Both the position numbers and the translations under genes were made by a program. Shown here piece after piece: positions 4,442 through 64,000 of a stretch of 64,000 nucleotides of DNA (the stretch's first letter is position 1; each line of letters opens with the position of its first letter). A model generated the notes under the pieces. It was not told the DNA's origin. It searched no databases and was given only the letters and a program-made list of their open reading frames with translations. This stretch comes from an uncultured Bacilli bacterium (GTDB lineage Bacteria; Bacillota_I; Bacilli_A; RF39; UBA660). The stretch spans positions 6,441-70,440 of the forward strand of contig CALVXO010000005.1 of assembly GCA_944371325.1 (NCBI GenBank), given 5' to 3'.

Positions 4442-6241
4442 TTATTGTTCAAATTGTGAATTATACAAATTAGCATAGAAACCATTTTTCTTTAATAATT
4501 CTTCATGATTTCCTTGCTCTACTATATCTCCATGGTTCATTACTAATATTAAATCAGCATCTCTAATAGTTGATAATCTATGAGCGATTATAAAAGATGT
4601 TCTTCCTTTCATTAATTCATCCATTGCTTTTTGAATTAATATTTCTGTCCTTGTATCAACACTACTAGTTGCTTCATCTAATATCAATACTTTCGGATTA
4701 GCCAAAATAGCACGAGCAATAGTTAATAATTGTTTTTGCCCTTGAGATATGTTATTTGTTTCTTCATTTAATTCCATATTATAAGCATCTGGTAAAGTTT
4801 GAATAAAATGATGAACATGAGCTTTTTTAGCTGCTTCAATTATTTCATCATCAGTTGCATCTAGTTTACCATATCTTAAATTTTCCATAATGGTTCCTGA
4901 AAATAACCATGTATCTTGTAAAACCATACCAAAAATATGTCTTAAATCACTTCTTTTAAAATCATTAATATTGTTACCATCAATTAAAATAGCACCATCA
5001 TTAACATTGTAAAATCTCATAAGTAATTTAATCATTGTTGTTTTTCCTGCTCCAGTTGGTCCTACTATAGCAATTTTTTGACCTTTTTTAACTTTTGCAC
5101 TAAAGTCTTTAATTATTATTTGATCTTCATTGTAACCAAATTTAACATGATCAAATGTTACATTACCTTCAATATTACCTACTTTAAGAGGATTTTTAAC
5201 TTCTTTTTCTTCTGTCTCATCTAAGAATTCAAATACTCTTTCACTAGCAGCAATCATTGATTGAATCATATTAGATACTTGGGCTAATTGAGCAATTGGG
5301 TTAGTAAAGTTTTTAGTATAAGAAATAAATGATTGAATATTACCAACAGTAATTTTACCTAAAATAGTAAAATAACCACCTAATATTGCAATTGCAACAT
5401 AACCTAAATTGCCAATAAAATTCATAATTGGATGCATCATACCTGAAAAGAATTGACTCTTCCATCCAACATTACTTAAATAAGTATTATCTTTTTCAAA
5501 GTCTTTCAAAACTTTATTTTCAGCATTAAATACTTTAATAACGTTTTGTCCGGAATACATTTCTTCAATCTTACCATTAACATGACCTAAATATTCTTGT
5601 TGTTTAGCAAAATAATTTTGACTATGTTTAACAATAAACATTGTTATAAATGATGCAATTGGTAAAATTAATATAGCAACAATCGTCATTGTAACATTTA
5701 TTGATAACATCATTACTAATATACCAATAATAGTTGTAATAGATGTTATTAATTGAGTTGCACTCTGATTTAAACTTTGACTCATTGTATCAATATCATT
5801 AGTTATAATAGATAAAACTTCACCATGAGTCTTTTTATCAAAATAAGAAATAGGTAATTTATTTATTTTAATAGATACCTTTTTTCTTAATTCATATGTA
5901 TACTTTTGACTTATACCAGTCATTATAAATCCTTGAACATAAGAAAATAATGCACTTATAATATATAAAATTATTAAAAATATTAAAATAGAAGCAATCT
6001 TATTAAAATCAATACCAGTACCACCAGATAATTTACTAACAATTCCATTAAATAATTCCGTTGTAGCATTACCTAATATTTTAGGTCCTACTATTGAAAA
6101 TATAGTACTAGCAATAGCAAATATAAATATAACTATTAATTGTACTTTATATTTGCTCATACTCTTAAATAATTTTTTTAATGTTCCTTTAAAATCTTTG
6201 GCTTTTTCAACACTGCCTATTGCACCTGGACCTCTATTCAT
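4442..6241 (-). CDS. ABC exporter permease/ATPase half-transporter (consensus Walker B and H-loop, degenerate signature)
   Basis: Has a six-TM exporter domain followed by an NBD. Motifs: Walker A GPTGAGKTT, Walker B ILILDEATS, H-loop IIAHRLS. The signature reads ISQGQKQ instead of LSGGQ. Confidence 0.9.
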   Translation of the reverse strand: MNRGPGAIGSVEKAKDFKGTLKKLFKSMSKYKVQLIVIFIFAIASTIFSIVGPKILGNATTELFNGIVSKLSGGTGIDFNKIASILIFLIILYIISALFSYVQGFIMTGISQKYTYELRKKVSIKINKLPISYFDKKTHGEVLSIITNDIDTMSQSLNQSATQLITSITTIIGILVMMLSINVTMTIVAILILPIASFITMFIVKHSQNYFAKQQEYLGHVNGKIEEMYSGQNVIKVFNAENKVLKDFEKDNTYLSNVGWKSQFFSGMMHPIMNFIGNLGYVAIAILGGYFTILGKITVGNIQSFISYTKNFTNPIAQLAQVSNMIQSMIAASERVFEFLDETEEKEVKNPLKVGNIEGNVTFDHVKFGYNEDQIIIKDFSAKVKKGQKIAIVGPTGAGKTTMIKLLMRFYNVNDGAILIDGNNINDFKRSDLRHIFGMVLQDTWLFSGTIMENLRYGKLDATDDEIIEAAKKAHVHHFIQTLPDAYNMELNEETNNISQGQKQLLTIARAILANPKVLILDEATSSVDTRTEILIQKAMDELMKGRTSFIIAHRLSTIRDADLILVMNHGDIVEQGNHEELLKKNGFYANLYNSQFEQ

Positions 6242-53567: not shown

Positions 53568-54332
53568 TTAAGATCCCAATAAAGATAAAATAATATTTAT
53601 ATCTATATGACTAAAATAAATAATTAAAGCAGCCATACTTAAAAAAGGTCCATAAGGTATTTCGTGATTTCTATTTGTTTTCATTATAAAAACTGAGACA
53701 GGTAAAGCAATAAAAGCAGATAAAAATATGGTAATAATTGATAATTCCCAACCTATTATTAAACCAAAAACTGCCATTAATTTTATATCTCCTCCACCCA
53801 TAGATTCTCTTTTAAATATAAAATCACCAAATAATTTAAGTAATAACATAATTATAAATGCTATTAAAGCACTTATTATAGAATGTAATAAAACATCTAA
53901 TCCGTTAATAAAATATATTTCTATTATTAATAATAAACTAAATACAATTAATACACTATCTTCTATTATCATATAATAATAATCACTTAAAATAACAATT
54001 ATTAACAAAGAAGTAAATGTTAAAGCAATTATTAAATCATATGATATACCAAATGATAAATAACAAATTACAAATAACAATCCACAAATAATTTCCGATA
54101 TAGGATAAAATATGGATATTTTTTGTTTACAGTTAACACATTTTCCTTTTTGTAACATATAAGATAAAATTGGTATTAATTCTAAAGGCTTTAATTTATG
54201 ATTACAATTTGGGCAATGACTACCTGGATAAATAATTGATTCTCCTTTTGGTAATCTATATGCTACAACATTATAGAAGGAACCAAAAATGGTTCCTAAT
54301 ATGAATAATCCTATTACAATACTTATTTCCAT
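53568..54332 (-). CDS. pilD: prepilin peptidase (A24 family, PilD/ComC)
   Basis: N-terminal CxxC...CxxC (CPNCNHK, CVNCKQK) and the aspartyl protease block MGGGDIKL. The ATG at 54330-54332 follows SD GGGGGA. Confidence 0.9.
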   Translation of the reverse strand: MEISIVIGLFILGTIFGSFYNVVAYRLPKGESIIYPGSHCPNCNHKLKPLELIPILSYMLQKGKCVNCKQKISIFYPISEIICGLLFVICYLSFGISYDLIIALTFTSLLIIVILSDYYYMIIEDSVLIVFSLLLIIEIYFINGLDVLLHSIISALIAFIIMLLLKLFGDFIFKRESMGGGDIKLMAVFGLIIGWELSIITIFLSAFIALPVSVFIMKTNRNHEIPYGPFLSMAALIIYFSHIDINIILSLLGS

Positions 54333-54342
54333 AAAAATCCCC

Positions 54343-56295
54343 CTACATTTGAATTGCACTATAGTAACTAAACATTGGAATAACAATTGATAATACTATT
54401 CCACCAACAGTAAATGTTAAGAATAAAATTAAAGCAGGTTCAATAAATGTTTTAATTCTTGTAACCGCATTTCTATGTAATTCCTGATAATAAGCTGAAA
54501 CCTTTTGCATCATTTCAGCTAATTGACCTGTTCTTTCACCAGTTGTAATCATTTCATAAGCTGGAACTGGGAATGCCCAATGATCTTTAAATGCTAATGA
54601 TATTCTTTCACCTTTTGCTAAATTTGTTATTGTATCAAGTATTAACATTTTATAAATTTCGTTATTTGTTATCTTATTTAATATTTCCATACTATCTGTT
54701 ATAAAAACATTATGAGCTAAAAGGGATGCGAATGTTTTTGTAAACATAGTAACCTCATTATATATAATAACATTACCAAATATAGGTGTATGCATTAACA
54801 ACCATTGAATAAATGTTTTAAATGCTTTAACATTTTTGTATAAATAAACAAATACTAAAATAAATGAACAAACTCCTATAATTAAGAATAAATAATTTTT
54901 TTGTAAGAAAGCACTTAAATTCATAACAAATATTGTGATTCCTGGGATTTGTGCACCATCTATTCCTTCATAGATCTTAACAAACTGTGGCACTACCCAT
55001 ACCATAATAAATACAACTGCAGCAATAGCCAAAACGAATATAATTGCTGGATAAGTCATTGCTGTAATCATTTGTTTTCTTGTTTTATCAGTTTCTGTAA
55101 AGTAATCTTCCATATCATCTAATACTTCTGGCAACTCTCCAGTCATTTCAGACGCTTTCACCATATTAATAAATAATCTTGGAAAAGCTTCACCTTGCTT
55201 TTCCATTGCGGTGGAAAAGTTATCTCCCATAGTTAAATCATATATCATAGTTCTAAATATTCGCGAATATGATTTTTTTCTAAATTGATGAGATAATATT
55301 TTTAATGATTCTACTAAAGGAATACCAGCTTTAATATATGTAGATAATTGCGCACAAAAGAATATTAAGTCCCTTGTTTTTATTTTATATCGATTGTTAG
55401 AAGAACCATTACCATATATTCTTTGAATCCATTTATTTGTCTCAATACTGTAAACTTCATTTCCTTCACTTAATAAAAATGAATGAACTTCTACTTTAGA
55501 ATATGCTGGGAAATATCCTTTGATAATTTTACCATTTGGATCTTTAGCAACATATTTATACATAACTTTTTCTTCACTTTTTTCAGCATCGGCACCTTCA
55601 AAATCCAATAATAAAGCTTGTCTATTAATATCTTTTTTATTTTGAGCATTTTTAGCAAATCTATTGTTAGTAAAAATATTTTTTATTTTTTTAGGTATAT
55701 TACCAATTGACATAAACAAGTCGTTAATATGATCTGCAAATTTCTTTTTTTCCAACACAACATTTTCATTAATATAAATATCAGCTTTTCTTTTTTCTTT
55801 AAGTTCTTCTTTTTTCTTTGCAATTGCTTCTTTTTCTTTTTTTCTATTTTCCGCTAATCTCTTTTTATTTTCTTCATCGATTTGTCTATTTCTTTCTCTA
55901 GCTGCAGCTTTCATTTCTTGTTGTAACTGTTGTTTTTCAAGCATTTTATTATTAATTTCGTTTAATTTAATAAATAATCTTGAAATAATTATAATTGGAT
56001 AAACAAAACCGAATACAACATATTTTATAAATAAATATACAAATCTTGAAATAACTACAAAGCCGATAAATGCATATTTCAATAACTTATACCAAAAATA
56101 TGATAAATATAAAAATACATAACTAATAAGTTTTATAAAATAACTAAAAGTTGATACTACTATATCTATTAAAACAAATAAAGTTATAAAGAACCCAACA
56201 TTTACGTATTTTATAAAAGTTATAGTAAAGACAAACAAAAAACGTACCATCTTATATACATAAATAAATGGCAACAAATAAATTGGTTTATTCAA
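54343..56295 (-). CDS. pilC: type IV pilus/T2SS platform protein (GspF/PilC family) with a 244-aa N-terminal extension
   Basis: From aa 245 (MYKYVAKDPNGKIIKGYFPAYSKVEVHSFLLSEG) onward it is a typical two-repeat PilC. The first 110 aa are hydrophobic with the reiterated motif F(I/V)KY(V). Residues 111-175 are a K/E-rich coiled coil. Confidence 0.85.
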   Translation of the reverse strand: MNKPIYLLPFIYVYKMVRFLFVFTITFIKYVNVGFFITLFVLIDIVVSTFSYFIKLISYVFLYLSYFWYKLLKYAFIGFVVISRFVYLFIKYVVFGFVYPIIIISRLFIKLNEINNKMLEKQQLQQEMKAAARERNRQIDEENKKRLAENRKKEKEAIAKKKEELKEKRKADIYINENVVLEKKKFADHINDLFMSIGNIPKKIKNIFTNNRFAKNAQNKKDINRQALLLDFEGADAEKSEEKVMYKYVAKDPNGKIIKGYFPAYSKVEVHSFLLSEGNEVYSIETNKWIQRIYGNGSSNNRYKIKTRDLIFFCAQLSTYIKAGIPLVESLKILSHQFRKKSYSRIFRTMIYDLTMGDNFSTAMEKQGEAFPRLFINMVKASEMTGELPEVLDDMEDYFTETDKTRKQMITAMTYPAIIFVLAIAAVVFIMVWVVPQFVKIYEGIDGAQIPGITIFVMNLSAFLQKNYLFLIIGVCSFILVFVYLYKNVKAFKTFIQWLLMHTPIFGNVIIYNEVTMFTKTFASLLAHNVFITDSMEILNKITNNEIYKMLILDTITNLAKGERISLAFKDHWAFPVPAYEMITTGERTGQLAEMMQKVSAYYQELHRNAVTRIKTFIEPALILFLTFTVGGIVLSIVIPMFSYYSAIQM

Positions 56296-56414: not shown

Positions 56415-56747
56415 ATGAATTTTTATCCTTATTATAATTTTCCTTATACTTCTTTTACACAAGTTCCTAAAGTTGGTGGTTTAAAATCATTATTTGGTGG
56501 AATAAAATGGAGTTCAATATTAAGCGGAACTCAAAAGACATTAAATGTTGTTAATCAAGCAATTCCTATTATTAAACAAGCTGGACCAGTAATAAATAAT
56601 GCAAGAACAATGTTTAGAGTTATGAATGAATTTAACAAAGTTGATTCGCCACAAAATAATACAACTCAAAATAATGTAGTTGTAGAAACAGATAATAAAG
56701 AAAAAATTGAAAAAGTAGAAAATAATGGTCCTGTATTCTTTCAATAA
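56415..56747 (+). CDS. YqfQ-like small protein (tentative)
   Basis: SD AAAGGAGG. LSGTQKTLNVVNQAIPIIKQAGPVINNARTMFRVM resembles the YqfQ block l.ntQKvL...q..P.vqQyGP.v.NlP.m. Confidence 0.45.
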   Translation: MNFYPYYNFPYTSFTQVPKVGGLKSLFGGIKWSSILSGTQKTLNVVNQAIPIIKQAGPVINNARTMFRVMNEFNKVDSPQNNTTQNNVVVETDNKEKIEKVENNGPVFFQ

Positions 56748-56772
56748 AAAAAGCCGATTAATCGGTTTTTTT
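56746..56772. terminator. bidirectional hairpin between the yqfQ-like gene and typA
   Basis: AAAAAAAGCCGATTAATCGGTTTTTTT, with arms AGCCGA and TCGGTT (one G-T pair). It overlaps the typA stop. Confidence 0.5.
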
Positions 56773-58569: not shown

Positions 58570-58633
58570 AAAATCAACTCCCAATCAACTGTGTAATTAT
58601 AACATTTTTATTTTATTTTGTAAAGTTACAAAT

Positions 58634-58660
58634 AAAAATATGTTTTGTTAACATATTTTT
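58634..58660 (-). terminator. strong hairpin terminator ending the five-gene operon
   Basis: A perfect 11-bp stem, AAAAATATGTT with AACATATTTTT, has loop TTGTT and is flanked by U-runs. It overlaps the stop at 58659-58661. Confidence 0.65.
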
Positions 58661-59867
58661 AAATTAAACTAGATTTTGAAACTATAATAACTGGAACTAC
58701 TTTACAACTATCAGTTTTTAAACCTTTATAATATTTTGAATTATTATCATCTATTTTTTGATATTGAAAAGCACCATCATTATATTCAGTATCAATCCAA
58801 TAACAACTATTTGAGATTAAGTAATTAAATTTAGAATTATTAAATTTATAATAACCATTATTATTTATTGCAAAATTTAATTCAGTATTCAAACGTTCTT
58901 GATAATTCAAATTACCAATTATCATATCAGATAAATTTTCTCTTACTAAAACTGAATTATTAACATCTTTAGAAATAACTGGCAATATATCATTCATTTC
59001 TAAAGGTTTTGAAGTAACTTTCCAATTTTTAGTTATTTCATTAATAGTATTATTATAATTTTCATATGTGCTTACATTAAAACTATTATTTAAATCTGGT
59101 AATAACTTAACTGTAGTATCTCCTACCTTATTTCTTGAATCAATTACATAAGTTTTTAAACAAAATGCACTTAATTGATCACAAACTTTATTATTAACTA
59201 CATCATATAAAACAACATCACCTAAATTATAATTTGTATCTGATGATTCATTCGTTATTAGCATTTGTTCAGCTTTAATTTCAATTATCACTTCTAATGA
59301 AGGTCTTATTTCATAATCAGGATTATCTTGTTTTTTTTGTTGTTCTTCCATATAAAATTGATATGCTTTATTTCCCCATTCACTATCTAATTTATCATTA
59401 TTAGAATCAAGTGGCCATGATATAGAAACATTAAATTTGCCACTATCACCATGAGACAAAGCATAATCTTTATCTAAATTCATATTAATATGAAATGGAT
59501 AATCATGCGATAATTTATCTGTTAATTCTTCATTAGAAGCACTATTCAAAGTATCATTAAAAAATCTAACTGATTTAATATTATAACTAATTTGAGCATC
59601 TGAATCACCTAAATTAGCTATATCGACATCTTTTATTTCAGTATCCATGCCTGGATGAATATCTGATAAAGAAATAACTATTTCATTTGAAACAACTTGT
59701 TCACCATTTTTGAATTCAATGTTCCAAGCTTTAATATCAACGTCAACAGTAGCGCTTGATAAACCACTATAAGCAAACCAAGCTAAAGTAATAGAAACAA
59801 AAGAAATTGCAACAAAAAATAGCGACATCAAATTTAATTTCAAATATAATTTATGTTTTCTTTCCAC
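58659..59867 (-). CDS. secreted or membrane-anchored protein with SipW-type signal region (TasA/camelysin-like N-terminal part), 402 aa
   Basis: GTG start 8 nt after SD AAGGAG. The N-terminus is KLNLMSLFFVAISFVSITLAWFAYSGLSSATVDVDIKAW. ISLSDIHPGMDTEIKDVDIANLGDSDAQISY parallels TasA VNLSNLKPGDKLTKDFQFENNGSLAIKE. Lies immediately downstream of sipW. Confidence 0.5.
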   Translation of the reverse strand: MERKHKLYLKLNLMSLFFVAISFVSITLAWFAYSGLSSATVDVDIKAWNIEFKNGEQVVSNEIVISLSDIHPGMDTEIKDVDIANLGDSDAQISYNIKSVRFFNDTLNSASNEELTDKLSHDYPFHINMNLDKDYALSHGDSGKFNVSISWPLDSNNDKLDSEWGNKAYQFYMEEQQKKQDNPDYEIRPSLEVIIEIKAEQMLITNESSDTNYNLGDVVLYDVVNNKVCDQLSAFCLKTYVIDSRNKVGDTTVKLLPDLNNSFNVSTYENYNNTINEITKNWKVTSKPLEMNDILPVISKDVNNSVLVRENLSDMIIGNLNYQERLNTELNFAINNNGYYKFNNSKFNYLISNSCYWIDTEYNDGAFQYQKIDDNNSKYYKGLKTDSCKVVPVIIVSKSSLI

Positions 59868-59886
59868 TGTTACAACTCCTTTTCTT

Positions 59887-60441
59887 TTACGCTTTTTTTC
59901 TTCTTTTTTCTTCTTTTTCTAACATTGTTGTAAGTATTTCAGAACCTATTATATATAAAATTGGAACAAATATTAGGAAAAACATTCCAAATTTTGTGGC
60001 AACTATTTTATATATAAATGATAATATTATAGGTTTATAAATAATTTTACCATAAACTTGACTCTCATAAACTATTGGGTCTGGGGTATCATTTGCAATA
60101 CCTTGTGTATGAAAAATATATTTTCCATCTTCATCTTGTTCAATATTAATAACCTCATGAGTTACAACTTTTCCTGCTAAAGTACCTTGCTTTCCTAAAT
60201 ATGAAATAGCATCACCAACTTCAATTTTTGAAGGATCAATTTCTTTAGCAATTAAAACATCACCTATTTTATATTTAGGGTCCATACTTCCAGATACAAC
60301 CGTAAACATTCTAAAACTTAAAAATGATATTTTATTATTACTAAATCTTTGTAAAGCAACTACTAACAAAAATAAAATAATAAAAATTGCAACAAATATA
60401 TTTAAAATTGTTTTAATTATTTTAAAAGTTTTATTATTCAT
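59887..60441 (-). CDS. sipW: signal peptidase I, SipW (ER/archaeal) type
   Basis: VVSGSMDPKYKIGD (catalytic Ser) and VVTHEV (His instead of the Lys found in bacterial-type SPases). Has an N-terminal and a C-terminal TM helix. Confidence 0.85.
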   Translation of the reverse strand: MNNKTFKIIKTILNIFVAIFIILFLLVVALQRFSNNKISFLSFRMFTVVSGSMDPKYKIGDVLIAKEIDPSKIEVGDAISYLGKQGTLAGKVVTHEVINIEQDEDGKYIFHTQGIANDTPDPIVYESQVYGKIIYKPIILSFIYKIVATKFGMFFLIFVPILYIIGSEILTTMLEKEEKRRKKA

Positions 60442-60450
60442 ACTAAACCA

Positions 60451-61575
60451 CTACAAGTACTCTTGTGCCCTTTCTAAGTATTCTTCCATCGCATTTTTAA
60501 ATTTTTTCTTAACATCATCTATACCAACTAATCGTTCACTCTTATCTTTTTTTATCTCTTTAGCAATCATATTTAATAATTCTTCATCAGTTATTTCTAT
60601 ACCAGCACTTAATAATAAATCAACAATTCTTCTAATTTCTTCTTTTAACAATAAAACTGCATTTTTAGCCATTTTTTTCTTTTGTTCTCTTTTAGAAGGT
60701 ACTAAAGAATCTAAAACTAAATAATCTATTAAGAATGAATGATCCAAAAATCCTTTTAATACATCATTACCATTATCAGTATCATTTTCCTTAGTATCTT
60801 CATCATCTTCAAATTTTAATAAATATTCCCACAATTTAACTGCTATTCTAAAATTTGGATTCTTTAAAATGATATTAGTTTTTTTAATTGGTGGTTTTAT
60901 AAATGATACATGCGCTTTATCTAAAGCTTTATACATTTCACTTCTTTGCCAACTAGAGATATATTCTTTAATTCGTTTAATTCTTGCTTTGATTTTTTTT
61001 ATTTCATCTTTTATTTTTTTATCAACTTTAGCAGTTGGTAAAGTTTCTGAAGTAACTTTCAATTCGATATCTACTTTTTCAAAATCAGTTACTGTTTTTG
61101 CTGAATACTCTAATACTTTATCATCACTTAATTCAAAATTATTAAGTAATTCTTCCTTTTCTAAAACAAATTTTAACAAAGAATCTATTAGAGTGTAGAG
61201 AAACCTATTTTCATATATATTATAGGTTTCTTCATTTCTAACATCTAATATTTTTTTTGGTTCAACACTTTTTGTTTTCTTATCAATTTTATTAATATAT
61301 TCAGTATGTTTACTTAAATCTTTAATACTTGCCACGGTAATTTTTTTTGATTTTTCGATTTTAACAGTATTTTCTTCTCTAATAAGTGCGATTTTAGGTT
61401 GTCTTACAATAATATCGATATATGGACAAGCTTCTTCTATTATATCAACCCAATCAAAAGATACTAAATTTCCTTCATAATCAGATTTAAAAAACATTTC
61501 AGAACCTAATTTTTTTAGAAATATATCGGTTTTATCTTTTACTTCTTTTTCAACTTCACATTTAAAATTGTCCAT
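60451..61575 (-). CDS. McrC N-terminal/DUF2357-like partner protein with no recognisable nuclease motif (tentative)
   Basis: Blocks DWVDIIEEACPYIDIIVRQPK, ETYNIYENRFLYTLIDSL and ILKNPNFRIAVKLWEYL resemble DUF2357. The central and C-terminal parts are K/E-rich helices. I find no D...(D/E)xK core. SD AGGGG, 17 nt after the GTPase gene stop. Confidence 0.4.
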   Translation of the reverse strand: MDNFKCEVEKEVKDKTDIFLKKLGSEMFFKSDYEGNLVSFDWVDIIEEACPYIDIIVRQPKIALIREENTVKIEKSKKITVASIKDLSKHTEYINKIDKKTKSVEPKKILDVRNEETYNIYENRFLYTLIDSLLKFVLEKEELLNNFELSDDKVLEYSAKTVTDFEKVDIELKVTSETLPTAKVDKKIKDEIKKIKARIKRIKEYISSWQRSEMYKALDKAHVSFIKPPIKKTNIILKNPNFRIAVKLWEYLLKFEDDEDTKENDTDNGNDVLKGFLDHSFLIDYLVLDSLVPSKREQKKKMAKNAVLLLKEEIRRIVDLLLSAGIEITDEELLNMIAKEIKKDKSERLVGIDDVKKKFKNAMEEYLERAQEYL

Positions 61576-61592
61576 ATAATATCAACCCCTAA

Positions 61593-63119
61593 CTATATGC
61601 TTTTCTTAAGATTTTGTAAATATGCAATACATTCTTTCATTACATCTTTACCAAATTTTTTATTTAAATATGAAATAAATGGATCAATTTCATCTCTTAA
61701 TAAAGCAACACTTAATTGATCAAATTTCCTTAATATTTTTTTAGCAATAAAGTAATCAATTGCTTCTATTTCTTTACCACCACAAGCTACATAAACAGGA
61801 GTAAATACCCCTAATTGTTTCATAATACGATTACCAAAAGCAATTCTAAAATGTTCAATAACGTAATCATCTATTTCTCCAACATAATTTAATCCTTTAT
61901 CAGATAATGGATATTTTTCAACCGCATCAGCAAATAAACTGTCTAAATAACTTGAATTAATTTTTACTACATCTTGTTCACGACATTTAAATGGATCTAC
62001 TTTAGTATTAATATCAATAGGCATTGCTCTATCATATACTTTGTCAGTTACCATAAATGTTGAATCATCATTATTAATAGTACCAATATACCAAATATTA
62101 CCAGGTAATTTAATTTTTCCTTTAATTAATTTTTTAGGATCATCTGGCCAAGCACTAGGTACTAAATCTACTAACCATTCATCACGACTAGGCATTTCAA
62201 GAATTGATAATAAGTCTGCAAAATAATATTCAACACGAGCTAAGTTCATTTCATCTAGAATAATTGTATGAACGTCATCATCAAATGAAGCAGCATATAT
62301 TTCACCTAAAGCTTTAGTTTCATTGAATTTTTTAGTAAATTCATTGAAATATCCTAAGAAATCTGATTTATCTCTCCAAGATGGTTCAACAGAAGATACA
62401 CAAGCATCCATTCCCATAAATTTTCCCCAAGCATATGCTAAGGAAGTTTTACCTGTACCAGAGATACCTTGTAAAATAATTAACTTACCACAAGCTAAAC
62501 CACCAAAGAAAGGTCTTAAAATTGTAAAGTCATAATATAAATGTAATTGACTAGCTGCAAAGCATCTAAAATCATCAATTAATTGAGCTAAAGTTGTATC
62601 ATTTTGATATTTTTTAATTTTATAACCTTCAAATTGTTCATCAATAGCCACCAATTTAGGAAATCTAATTCCTTTAATTGCTTCATCTTCTTCAGGTTTT
62701 TCTTCTTCTTTGTTTTCTTCAGTTTCTTCTTCAGGATTAATGCCTAATTGAGAAACTTTCATAGCCATTAATTCTTCTCTTTCTTTCATTAACTTTCTAA
62801 CTTGATCATTTAAATTGCCAATCTCAGTCAACAATTCATCTTTACTTAAATTATTATTTAATTTTCTTATTATTTTTTTAACTAATAAGAAGATTAATAA
62901 TGCTATTAATAAGACAATTATTATTAAACAAACAACACACATAACAACGAATACTTTTTCATTGCCATTAAAGCTGTCTTTATAACTTTCAATTATTTTA
63001 GCGTAATCACTAAAACTAAACATTTGTTTAATACCATTAATAAATCCTTTAAAGGCGTTAAACAATCCATCAAAAAAGATAGATATAAATTCGTAAAAAA
63101 ATCTCAAAAATGTATTCAT
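61593..63119 (-). CDS. McrB-family (AAA_5) GTPase with N-terminal TM helix, coiled coil and acidic linker
   Basis: Walker A is LQGISGTGKTS. SVEPSWRDKSDFLGYFN...TIILDEMNLARVEYYFADLLSILE is the McrB-type Walker B region. GTINNDDS corresponds to the McrB MNTAD (NxxD) motif. TM helix VFVVMCVVCLIIIVLLIALLIFLLV is followed by KKIIRK. Confidence 0.7.
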   Translation of the reverse strand: MNTFLRFFYEFISIFFDGLFNAFKGFINGIKQMFSFSDYAKIIESYKDSFNGNEKVFVVMCVVCLIIIVLLIALLIFLLVKKIIRKLNNNLSKDELLTEIGNLNDQVRKLMKEREELMAMKVSQLGINPEEETEENKEEEKPEEDEAIKGIRFPKLVAIDEQFEGYKIKKYQNDTTLAQLIDDFRCFAASQLHLYYDFTILRPFFGGLACGKLIILQGISGTGKTSLAYAWGKFMGMDACVSSVEPSWRDKSDFLGYFNEFTKKFNETKALGEIYAASFDDDVHTIILDEMNLARVEYYFADLLSILEMPSRDEWLVDLVPSAWPDDPKKLIKGKIKLPGNIWYIGTINNDDSTFMVTDKVYDRAMPIDINTKVDPFKCREQDVVKINSSYLDSLFADAVEKYPLSDKGLNYVGEIDDYVIEHFRIAFGNRIMKQLGVFTPVYVACGGKEIEAIDYFIAKKILRKFDQLSVALLRDEIDPFISYLNKKFGKDVMKECIAYLQNLKKSI

Positions 63120-63122
63120 AAA

Positions 63123-64000
63123 CTACTCTCCCCAATAACTTCCTATTTTACTTGCTATATCATCATAAGCAATTTTATTGTGTAATTCCTCTTTAATTGA
63201 TGATAAAACATCAATCGATTCAAACATTTTCCCTTTTACTCTTTTATCGATAAATATGTATTCCATTGCTTCAACAATTCCTTGATCTTTTGCTTTAACT
63301 GCTGAAGTTTGTAAATCAACGGCAAATCTATATCCATCTTTAATTAATGATTTTATAACCTTTTTATTCTTTGATAATTCTTCATATTGTGCTAAAACAA
63401 TAATATTATTTTTAGCATATTCATCACCAAACAAATTAAATATTTTATCTAATTTATTAGATTTAGTGTATAAACTTTCTGGTATGTAGAATATATATTT
63501 TTTATTAAAATCAGCATTCAACATATCTTTAACAACTTGTACTAATAATAATGTTAACAAAACTTCAATTTTATCTTCAGCAACAATACCATCATAATAT
63601 GTTTTATCAACAATATAATCACTATATACCTTGCTAAAATTAATATTATGATTTAATTCAACTGCGTAAGTATTTTTAATTGATAAACTATTATATTTTA
63701 ATTCAAATAAACTTGTTTCTAATTTTTCAATTGCTTCTTTAACAACTGATTTATAAGTTCTTTGAATTTTTAGTATTTTACTAATCATAGAATTCATTGT
63801 TTTAGGATCGACTTCAGTTCCAATTAATTTAACCATCTTATTTTTATAAGTTTGTTTTTTTATTTTAGTATCATCTATAACTAAATATGTATGTTCTAAA
63901 TGCATAACCAAAGTAAATATATTAGTGTATTTTTTTACTTTTTCACTATATTTATTATCAGTTCCTTTGTATGCTTTAATCATTTCTTGAGCAGCTTCTT
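63123..64000 (-). CDS. hypothetical protein, first visible gene of the operon (N-terminus may lie beyond the window); weak EAL-like pattern
   Basis: The frame stays open to the window edge. The ATG at 63981-63983 has no clear SD. The stop lies 3 nt before the next ATG. Blocks NIIVLAQYEEL, IKSLIKDGYRFAVDL and MEYIFIDKRV loosely parallel EAL-domain blocks lvlEitE, L...G..ialDDFG and d.iKiD. Confidence 0.45.
   Translation of the reverse strand, partial: EAAQEMIKAYKGTDNKYSEKVKKYTNIFTLVMHLEHTYLVIDDTKIKKQTYKNKMVKLIGTEVDPKTMNSMISKILKIQRTYKSVVKEAIEKLETSLFELKYNSLSIKNTYAVELNHNINFSKVYSDYIVDKTYYDGIVAEDKIEVLLTLLLVQVVKDMLNADFNKKYIFYIPESLYTKSNKLDKIFNLFGDEYAKNNIIVLAQYEELSKNKKVIKSLIKDGYRFAVDLQTSAVKAKDQGIVEAMEYIFIDKRVKGKMFESIDVLSSIKEELHNKIAYDDIASKIGSYWGE

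Follow-up and report, generated by a model that had tools for sequence, protein, structure and literature searches.

The window analysed here is a stretch of 64,000 nucleotides (nt) from contig CALVXO010000005.1 of an uncultured Bacilli bacterium (assembly GCA_944371325.1; G+C content of about 24%), whose last part carries five consecutive genes on the minus strand, designated A to E. Gene A runs out of the window (63123..64000, the C-terminal 292 codons of a protein with 680 amino acid residues) and is followed by gene B (61593..63119, 508 residues), whose product is recognised as a McrB-type AAA+ GTPase that is anchored in the membrane and belongs to the NxD clade, gene C (60451..61575, 374 residues), coding for a putative McrC-type partner without nuclease domain, gene D (59887..60441, 184 residues), coding for a signal peptidase I of the SipW/endoplasmic reticulum type that is predicted to be active, and gene E (58659..59867, 402 residues, GTG start), coding for a two-domain secreted protein, a probable SipW substrate. 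An AT-rich intrinsic terminator, formed by a hairpin with a U-rich tail on the same strand (58634..58660), marks the end of the locus. The initial annotation, made from the sequence alone, had described these genes as a five-gene operon. Their coordinates were confirmed in the list of open reading frames (ORFs) and their clustering stands, but they are not a self-contained operon: they constitute the promoter-distal end of a larger locus, of the kind named CoCoPALM (Bell, Makarova, Koonin et al., eLife 2024; PMC11090510).

By direct reading, the genes are separated by 3 nt (A-B), 17 nt (B-C), 9 nt (C-D) and 19 nt (D-E), as first annotated, and Shine-Dalgarno sequences were recognised at the A-B junction (GGGGAGAG, inside the 3' end of A), at the B-C junction (AGGGG) and at the D-E junction (AAAGGAG, ahead of the GTG of E), the one claimed for the C-D junction being only weak. 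A scan of species-representative genomes identified at least 394 loci that encode a protein closely related to B, of which the 80 best were analysed; median gaps in these related loci, in the same order, are 4, 15.5, 4 and 13 nt (72-77 loci). The hairpin at 58634-58660, already proposed as a strong terminator, folds with -11.7 kcal/mol (z = -4.3; none of the shuffled sequences folded as well), and was missed by our consensus scan because this requires at least three G-C pairs and the stem is almost entirely A-T. Promoter- and terminator-like consensus matches inside the five-gene region occur at chance level, and typA, downstream of the locus, has its own near-consensus promoter (TTTACA-17-TATAAT).

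Gene A is open to the window edge, with no in-frame stop from its first ATG to base 64000; the source contig, identical to the window over 58631-64000 (5370 of the 5370 nt compared), carries the rest of it, up to 1,165 nt past the window end. On this contig the gene cluster continues upstream of A and, therefore, the five ORFs make up the final third of a locus that extends beyond the window end and comprises at least 13 genes in about 14.5 kb. The additional genes are a partial ORF of 282 residues on the same strand as A-E, a paralogue of SipW that is predicted to be catalytically dead (177 residues), a member of the family here called c1 on the opposite strand (203 residues), a member of family c8 (231 residues), three c6 paralogues (414, 441 and 348 residues), a small gene (47 residues) and a c9 protein (534 residues), after which A, B, C, D, E and typA follow. 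The 47-residue ORF (positions 4552-4695 of locus L081), located between the third c6 paralogue and c9, is very acidic and overlaps the start of c9 by 8 nt; gene calls for it exist in two independent assemblies.

A membrane-tethered GTPase and its McrC-type partner

The only sequence in the PDB matched by the profile of B, built from 37 homologues, is that of Escherichia coli McrB (E-value 3e-5), and profile-profile alignment (hhalign) of the two gives 96.8% probability over 227 columns. B itself has no significant Pfam match, and more distant relatives pass the cut-off of AAA_5. We identified, always on the minus strand, a Walker A motif (GISGTGKT, residues 218-225, 62445..62468), a Walker B region (ILDEMN, residues 287-292, 62244..62261, which aligns with IIDEIN of McrB and in which LDEMN is invariant) and the McrB signature G-T-I-N-N-D-D (residues 346-352, 62064..62084), that is, N-x-D with a second D; Walker A and signature are both invariant in the alignment. 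The N-N-D-D of B alone could also be read as NxxD, and it is the family pattern, kept as G-T-[AIV]-N-x-D-[DE] in 150 representatives down to 33% identity, that decides for NxD, the branch being defined by "NxD followed by D or E" (PMC11090510).

The first 150 residues of B comprise a conserved hydrophobic peptide, a transmembrane (TM) helix recognised by hydropathy scan (residues 62-80, 62880..62936, minus strand) and followed by KKIIRK, a short heptad coiled coil identified by direct reading (residues 91-126, 62742..62849, minus strand), in which L97, E99, L103, V107 and M120 are invariant in the 37 homologues, and an acidic linker. No match to a DNA-binding family was observed in this region (Pfam), and the positive-inside rule predicts that the GTPase side faces the cytoplasm. 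On its motifs and its profile, B is thus classified in the NxD clade of McrB-type AAA+ GTPases, with a single TM helix and a short coiled coil as its tether to the membrane; both the McrB-like GTPase of the initial annotation and its replacement of the DNA-reading N-domain by a TM helix plus coiled coil were borne out.

C adjoins B in 74 of 76 loci and matches the Pfam family DUF2357, the N-terminal domain of McrC (4.2e-11; 43 bits, the cut-off being 23.3), over residues 53-150 (61126..61419, minus strand), a segment that includes the invariant motif EETYNxYENRFLYTLI; conserved residues are concentrated in this motif and in PPIKKTNIILKNPNF. Nothing resembling the nuclease motif D...(D/E)xK is conserved in C, beyond residue 250 neither acidic nor lysine residues of a catalytic type are conserved, no nuclease family was matched in Pfam and the profile of C has no match in the PDB. 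In the clostridial homologues, with 394-607 residues, DUF2357 is again the only match. The AlphaFold2 model of C, built on a shallow alignment (pLDDT, the predicted local distance difference test score, of 57 overall), was used for secondary structure alone: helices 115-145 and 182-210 (pLDDT of about 80-89) flank a beta hairpin (154-177), and the remaining part is all-helical, with low confidence. The DUF2357 match, the lack of a conserved nuclease motif or nuclease-family match and the C-terminal half predicted to be all-helical support the assignment of C as a McrC-type partner without nuclease, as had been supposed for this gene.

Signal peptidases and candidate substrates

D scores above the cut-off of the archaeal/ER-type signal peptidase I model TIGR02228 of NCBIfam (7e-23, 81.2 bits against 51.85) and below that of the equivalog model for Bacillus SipW, NF046067 (68.8 bits against 190), so that it is predicted to be the same enzyme type as Bacillus SipW without being its orthologue by the NCBI criterion. 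It has TM helices at residues 12-30 and 146-164, and its putative catalytic serine (SGSMDP, 60277-60294, minus strand) and histidine (THEV, 60151-60162, minus strand) are each invariant in 72 of 72 homologues. The same two residues are invariant in all 22 stand-alone second SipW proteins and in all 34 N-terminal domains of A. The SipW-type peptidase of the initial annotation is, accordingly, sustained by both the model score and the invariant residues.

A second peptidase of this type lies at the other end of the five genes. The N-terminal part of A, with approximately 170 residues, is a SipW-type domain with the catalytic serine and histidine between two TM helices (residues 11-29 and 142-160), and TIGR02228 matches this domain of an A homologue at 2e-17. 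It is followed by a charged linker and by a domain of about 330 residues without TM helices, predicted to be cytoplasmic, which is the only part of A inside the window: a tblastn search aligned 63126-63998 with residues 390-680 of a 680-residue A homologue. This C-terminal domain has no relative in Pfam or the PDB. Inspection by eye had suggested a degenerate EAL domain, from an alternating beta/alpha pattern and the segments ..DGYRFAVDL.. and ..YIFIDKR.. (63123-63700), and this assignment was rejected, as neither Pfam nor the PDB supports it. The domain is fused to SipW in 34 loci and is a separate protein in 43, a stand-alone SipW being detected in 21 loci; the occurrence of fused and split forms argues that the peptidase and a cytoplasmic component are physically coupled.

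The pseudo-SipW encoded upstream is homologous to SipW (hhalign, 99%) and has lost both the serine and the histidine in 61 of 61 sequences. Judging by these residues, the locus encodes two SipW-type peptidases predicted to be active, D and the N-terminal domain of A, accompanied in most loci by one pseudo-peptidase.

The product of E has an N-terminal signal anchor, and in its AlphaFold2 model (pLDDT of 88; predicted template modelling score of 0.79) a TM helix and a disordered linker precede two domains, the first beta-rich and the second alpha/beta. The beta-rich domain (residues ~50-201) is common to several paralogous families: both forms of E, c1, c5 and a family called small189 are paralogues (hhalign, 92-98%). 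The C-terminal domain contains cysteines and exists only in the long form of E; this extra domain of about 180 residues (58659-59200) has four invariant cysteines (C229, C236, C355 and C388) and is a possible adhesin or tip domain specific to the lineage. A short form of E, of about 209 residues and without the extra domain, is found in 42 other loci.

A SipW-type cleavage site is predicted in E at S-I-T-L-A/W-F-A-Y-S (the slash marking the cut; 59766..59792 counted from I, minus strand), where threonine occupies -3, alanine -1 and an aromatic residue P2', which is reported as the feature that makes TasA a SipW-specific substrate (PMC10269814). The signal anchors of E, c1, c5, c6, small189 and the giant family c7 end in T-x-[AS]/x-[FYW], a site of the same type. 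This motif follows the hydrophobic stretch in 94% of the long E proteins, 81% of c6 and 60% of c1 (about 1% of unrelated ORFs), and in 35-56% of short E (43%), small189, c5 and c7; in a relaxed form it is present in 32 of 32 long E proteins, 51 of 52 c6 and 78 of 93 c1, over a background of 13%. Family c8, which shares the C-terminal motif W-x-E-G-[QD]-D-x-D-C with c6, has a TM helix, and the cleavage motif was observed in one of 33 members. No relatives of c9, c6 or c8 were found in the PDB or Pfam.

E had initially been described as a TasA-like exported protein. Its predicted cleavage site supports a secreted protein that is a probable SipW substrate, but homology of E and its paralogues to TasA was rejected. 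They have no match in Pfam or NCBIfam, including Peptidase_M73 and the NCBIfam model of SipW-cognate signals, and hhalign against Bacillus subtilis TasA (query sequence verified against 8AUR and 5OF1) gave less than 1% for E, less than 3% for each of the E, c1, c5, c6 and c8 families and 23% for small189. A Foldseek search of the whole two-domain model of E against a PDB library returned no match at E ≤ 1e-3, and TasA (5of1/8aur, present in the separate database of PDB sequences, their presence in that library not being checked) lay outside the top 50; the best partial matches are PapD/ASH-type sandwiches. Sortase-related features were also absent: no strict LPxTG motif was found in 407 members of the secreted families and no ORF with TLxTC in the 80 loci.

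Several small paralogous subunits together with a pseudo-peptidase fit the logic of a filament with major and minor subunits, and we slightly favour the view that the locus builds a surface filament. Alternatively, it may build or export something else, such as a surface coat, an adhesin layer or an export route for the giant c7 proteins and their accessories. The c7 proteins, with 1,150-2,000 residues (L003 2257-5811, L015 2155-5835, L066 18-6002 and others), carry a site of the type T-L-A/R-Y, i.e. the same cleavage motif, and a conserved "DPY(I/L)IS" region; the extra cysteine-rich domain of long E looks adhesin-like, no polymerisation signature was identified, and the presence of the locus throughout the lineage is what would be expected of a core envelope feature. 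In the genome of the window, however, there is no c7 within the 21.5 kb around the locus, and we regard a non-filament product as improbable.

Conservation and genomic context

The best 80 loci belong to metagenome-assembled genomes (MAGs) labelled Bacilli, "Tenericutes" or Mollicutes, or (mis)labelled otherwise, from uncultured low-GC gut Bacilli. The order A-B-C-D-E was observed in essentially every one of these loci that is long enough, and in all 39 loci that extend for 9 kb or more to either side the five genes are single-copy and in constant order. The other components vary in their presence in these 39 loci (pseudo-SipW in 36, c1 in 37, c5 in 33, small189 in 28, c7 in 26, c6 in 25, c8 in 22 and c9 in 21).

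A related core recurs in Clostridia. Using a representative with 37% identity as query, we identified 57 loci (Lachnospiraceae, Oscillospiraceae and others) in which B is 33-44% identical; most keep c8, c6 (1-3 copies), SipW or A, B and C, followed in the majority (Oscillospiraceae-type) by c6 and a second SipW. The linkage of the GTPase pair to sipW, whose absence elsewhere had been put forward as grounds to abandon the association, is thus seen in two classes of Bacillota, in over 130 loci at the species level, and the recurrence of the core in Clostridia argues that the link is functional. It is, in our view, highly probable that this is a CoCoPALM locus whose genes work together. The opposite case, a chance adjacency of a degenerate McrBC pair and an unrelated SipW/matrix operon, might draw on the existence of stand-alone pairs elsewhere, but the constant gene order, the SipW-B-C-c6-SipW core kept in Clostridia at that identity and intergenic gaps of 3-19 nt make it extremely improbable.

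These stand-alone pairs are formed by B relatives with at least three TM helices and a McrC-like gene (L144-L150; L151-L153), in Christensenellales-like and some Bacilli MAGs, with housekeeping genes as neighbours (SecA, MetK, polysaccharide synthesis), and bear on the present locus only indirectly. In L151-L153, a SipW-like protein of 417 residues is encoded immediately upstream. A further arrangement, B-C-B, in which two McrB-like paralogues flank the McrC-like gene, was observed in MAGs of rabbit-gut Clostridia and one of Anaeroplasmataceae (L124-L138), and no SipW-like gene was detected in these loci.

A defence-like module with an envelope-directed effector had been proposed as an alternative; in such a defence or conflict system, a McrBC-derived sensor might act, for example, by superinfection exclusion or abortive infection through secreted or membrane proteins. 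This agrees poorly with a locus of single-copy genes in constant order, with B 54-98% identical across the best 80 species-level loci and with housekeeping genes, not a defence island, as neighbours, since genes for defence tend to be patchy and variable. In its favour, the closest PADLOC model of B, PDC-M26A (1.4e-36), is a phage-defence candidate, the NxD clade otherwise consists of predicted defence systems (PMC11090510) and the synteny of the downstream flank breaks between close genomes. Nevertheless, no nuclease, HEPN or other toxin domain was found with Pfam and PADLOC, C has no PADLOC match, and searches of a viral fold library and of PHROGs gave no significant matches and no link to a prophage. 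We consider a defence role very unlikely.

The break in synteny coincides with the end of the locus: homology to a sister contig (L001, 94.6% identical) ends at 58631, right after the terminator hairpin, a boundary that is either a rearrangement breakpoint or a misjoin of the MAG at the locus edge. The 7 kb downstream in the sister (L001 14497-21527) have no counterpart in the other 58 kb of the window. Flanks are not conserved in general, and typA and pilus genes adjoin the locus only in the genome of the window. A link to the neighbouring type IV pilus genes was considered, a reported case being that of Clostridium perfringens BsaC (PMC11580942), and rejected, since typA, pilC and the prepilin peptidase gene adjoin the locus in none of the 80 related loci.

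Regarding this flank, the PilC/T2SSF-like gene (54343-56295, with 53568-54386, both on the minus strand) codes for an unusually long protein (635-650 residues), whose N-terminal extension of about 230 residues contains hydrophobic segments and a K/E-rich coiled coil; it is followed by genes for a prepilin peptidase, LspA, RluD and a rhomboid protein. Between typA and the pilC-like gene there is, on the opposite strand, a small ORF of the YqfQ family (56415-56747, plus strand), and a terminator-like hairpin (56747-56772, plus strand) abuts the 3' end of typA, with an overlap of about 15 nt.

Proposed function and relation to known systems

The best explanation for these observations, to which we assign a probability of about 60%, is that of a CoCoPALM locus for the nucleotide-controlled, sortase-independent assembly of a surface filament. 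We hypothesize that the secreted paralogues would be inserted into the membrane by Sec and trimmed by the SipW paralogues, and that the trimmed proteins would form a sortase-independent surface filament or coat, with c8 as the probable membrane base, since it has a TM helix without a cleavage site. The pseudo-peptidase would probably act as a holdase or chaperone, by analogy with SipA of Streptococcus pyogenes. On the cytoplasmic face, a McrB-like hexamer with its McrC-like activator could touch the peptidase via the cytoplasmic domain of A, and perhaps c9, and GTP hydrolysis might act as the gate or the power source for processing and assembly across the membrane.

The broadest form of this proposal, that of an envelope machine of a class not recognised before, in which a McrB-type ring and a McrC-type activator taken from restriction systems drive mechanically, or gate, the polymerisation and SipW-dependent maturation of filament subunits of a new family across the membrane, without sortase or type IV pilus parts, and which would be a core, vertically inherited organelle of gut Bacilli with reduced genomes (RF39-like "Tenericutes") and of many gut Clostridia, is put forward only tentatively. 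That B is a true motor, as opposed to a switch, likewise seems doubtful to us.

Several observations weigh against the proposal. Polymerisation of the secreted proteins is presumed, and the way in which a cytoplasmic AAA+ ring would act on extracytoplasmic processing is speculation. The secreted proteins match neither TasA nor a known pilin or solved structure. Foldseek returned no meaningful fold match for the model of C, whose confidence is low (pLDDT of 57), and profiles detect no similarity between C and E. coli McrC. For the N-terminus of B, hhalign detects no similarity to E. coli FtsB (0.6%) and Pfam gives no DivIC match, its predicted topology, with the GTPase inside, being the opposite of that of FtsB. 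In addition, the multi-TM B-C pairs without a SipW neighbour indicate that the pair can also work in other settings.

Since no energy source is required for TasA-type fibres, the most serious rival is a regulatory one: the GTPase pair would be a switch or a quality-control checkpoint, not a motor, that licenses the peptidases or orders the use of subunits, the signal being the nucleotide state or a cytoplasmic cue sensed by C, c9 or the A domain, and assembly outside being spontaneous. The cytoplasmic domain that A tethers to the peptidase and the absence of an enzymatic signature in c9 and in that domain are in line with this, as is the GTPase activity of McrB, which is slow and activator-dependent (PMC11090510). 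On the other hand, B is under very strong constraint, with a mean column identity of 68% in the family alignments, against 45% for C and 34% for A, an AAA+ architecture that forms rings points more typically to a mechanical enzyme, and no sensor domain was found. A pure switch seems to us rather unlikely, and we retain nucleotide-controlled filament assembly as the preferred interpretation.

McrBC is the textbook GTP-driven restriction motor. In the locus described here, such a pair of motor and activator is without the DNA reader and the nuclease that it once had, has acquired a membrane anchor and is now a fixed part of a cluster for secretion and processing; if our interpretation is true, this would clearly exemplify the co-option of a defence motor for cell-surface biogenesis, and a new route, dependent on nucleoside triphosphates, by which Gram-positive-type bacteria form surface filaments independently of sortase. 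Conservation of the locus extends to hundreds of uncultured gut species, and its product may shape adhesion or cell-cell contact in little-understood members of the human and animal microbiota.

With E. coli K-12 McrBC, the pair shares the AAA+ GTPase fold, Walker A, Walker B and signature motifs, and a partner with the McrC N-terminal domain; it differs in having neither a DNA-binding N-domain nor a PD-(D/E)xK nuclease, in its NxD instead of NxxD signature, in its membrane anchor and in an inheritance that is vertical and not patchy. CoCoNuT systems (CnuB/CnuC) belong to the same NxD branch, and also display coiled-coil fusions and McrC homologues that often lack an active nuclease (PMC11090510). 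Those systems are, however, cytoplasmic and always accompanied by HEPN or other nucleases and by RNA-binding domains, whereas a TM anchor, secretion and processing genes and no nuclease are found here.

As in the tapA-sipW-tasA operon of B. subtilis and the sipW-bsa operon of C. perfringens, a dedicated SipW-type peptidase is encoded beside its candidate substrates, which have an aromatic P2' residue, and the system is sortase-independent. The substrates, in contrast, show no detectable relation to TasA in sequence or fold, there are two peptidases predicted to be active and a pseudo-peptidase, and the cytoplasmic NTPase (nucleoside triphosphatase) module is absent from both of those operons. 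A catalytically inactive signal-peptidase-like protein among pilus subunit genes is also a trait of the S. pyogenes FCT pilus (SipA/LepA; PMC4049620), for which SipA is described as a signal-peptidase-like pilus factor (PMC4049620), and this resemblance probably underlies the reading as a "pilus assembly factor"; in the FCT pilus, LPxTG pilins are polymerised by sortases, and neither was found in our 80 loci. Type IV pili and type II secretion offer an analogy only, in that they too combine a hexameric NTPase in the cytoplasm with a dedicated peptidase and with several subunits that have N-terminal membrane anchors: the proteins are unrelated, and the cut would be made here by an S26 peptidase on the outer face, instead of an A24 peptidase on the inner one.

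The closest resemblance is to CoCoPALM itself. The initial annotation knew of no described system with this composition, but the association had been named in 2024, in a single paragraph that defers to a future paper and describes a large clade of NxD McrB GTPases with an FtsB-like TM and coiled-coil domain (PMC11090510). The same paper notes that McrC homologues of the NxD branch often lack the nuclease. The main text of that paper gives no CoCoPALM accessions, and the supplementary files we examined do not mention the name; our literature search found no later paper with it, none combining McrB, pilus and signal peptidase, and, for McrB with SipW or TasA, only strain genotypes. The identity of our locus rests on its match to the published description: B is a GTPase of NxD type with a TM and coiled-coil N-terminus, C an adjacent McrC homologue (DUF2357) with long helices, signal-peptidase-family genes are associated in both Bacilli and Clostridia, in keeping with an occurrence in Bacillota, and nothing contradicts membership, sequence similarity to E. 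coli FtsB being the one element of the description that was not reproduced. Four of the five proteins had been read correctly at the outset, the exception being the homology implied by "TasA-like", and the association is real and unusual. We found no further publication on it since it was named, and the locus is a further case of CoCoPALM, to which it adds the full gene set, the two putatively active and one dead SipW proteins, the fusion of SipW to the A domain, the candidate substrate families with T-x-A/x-F sites, the absence of a sortase and conservation throughout the lineage.

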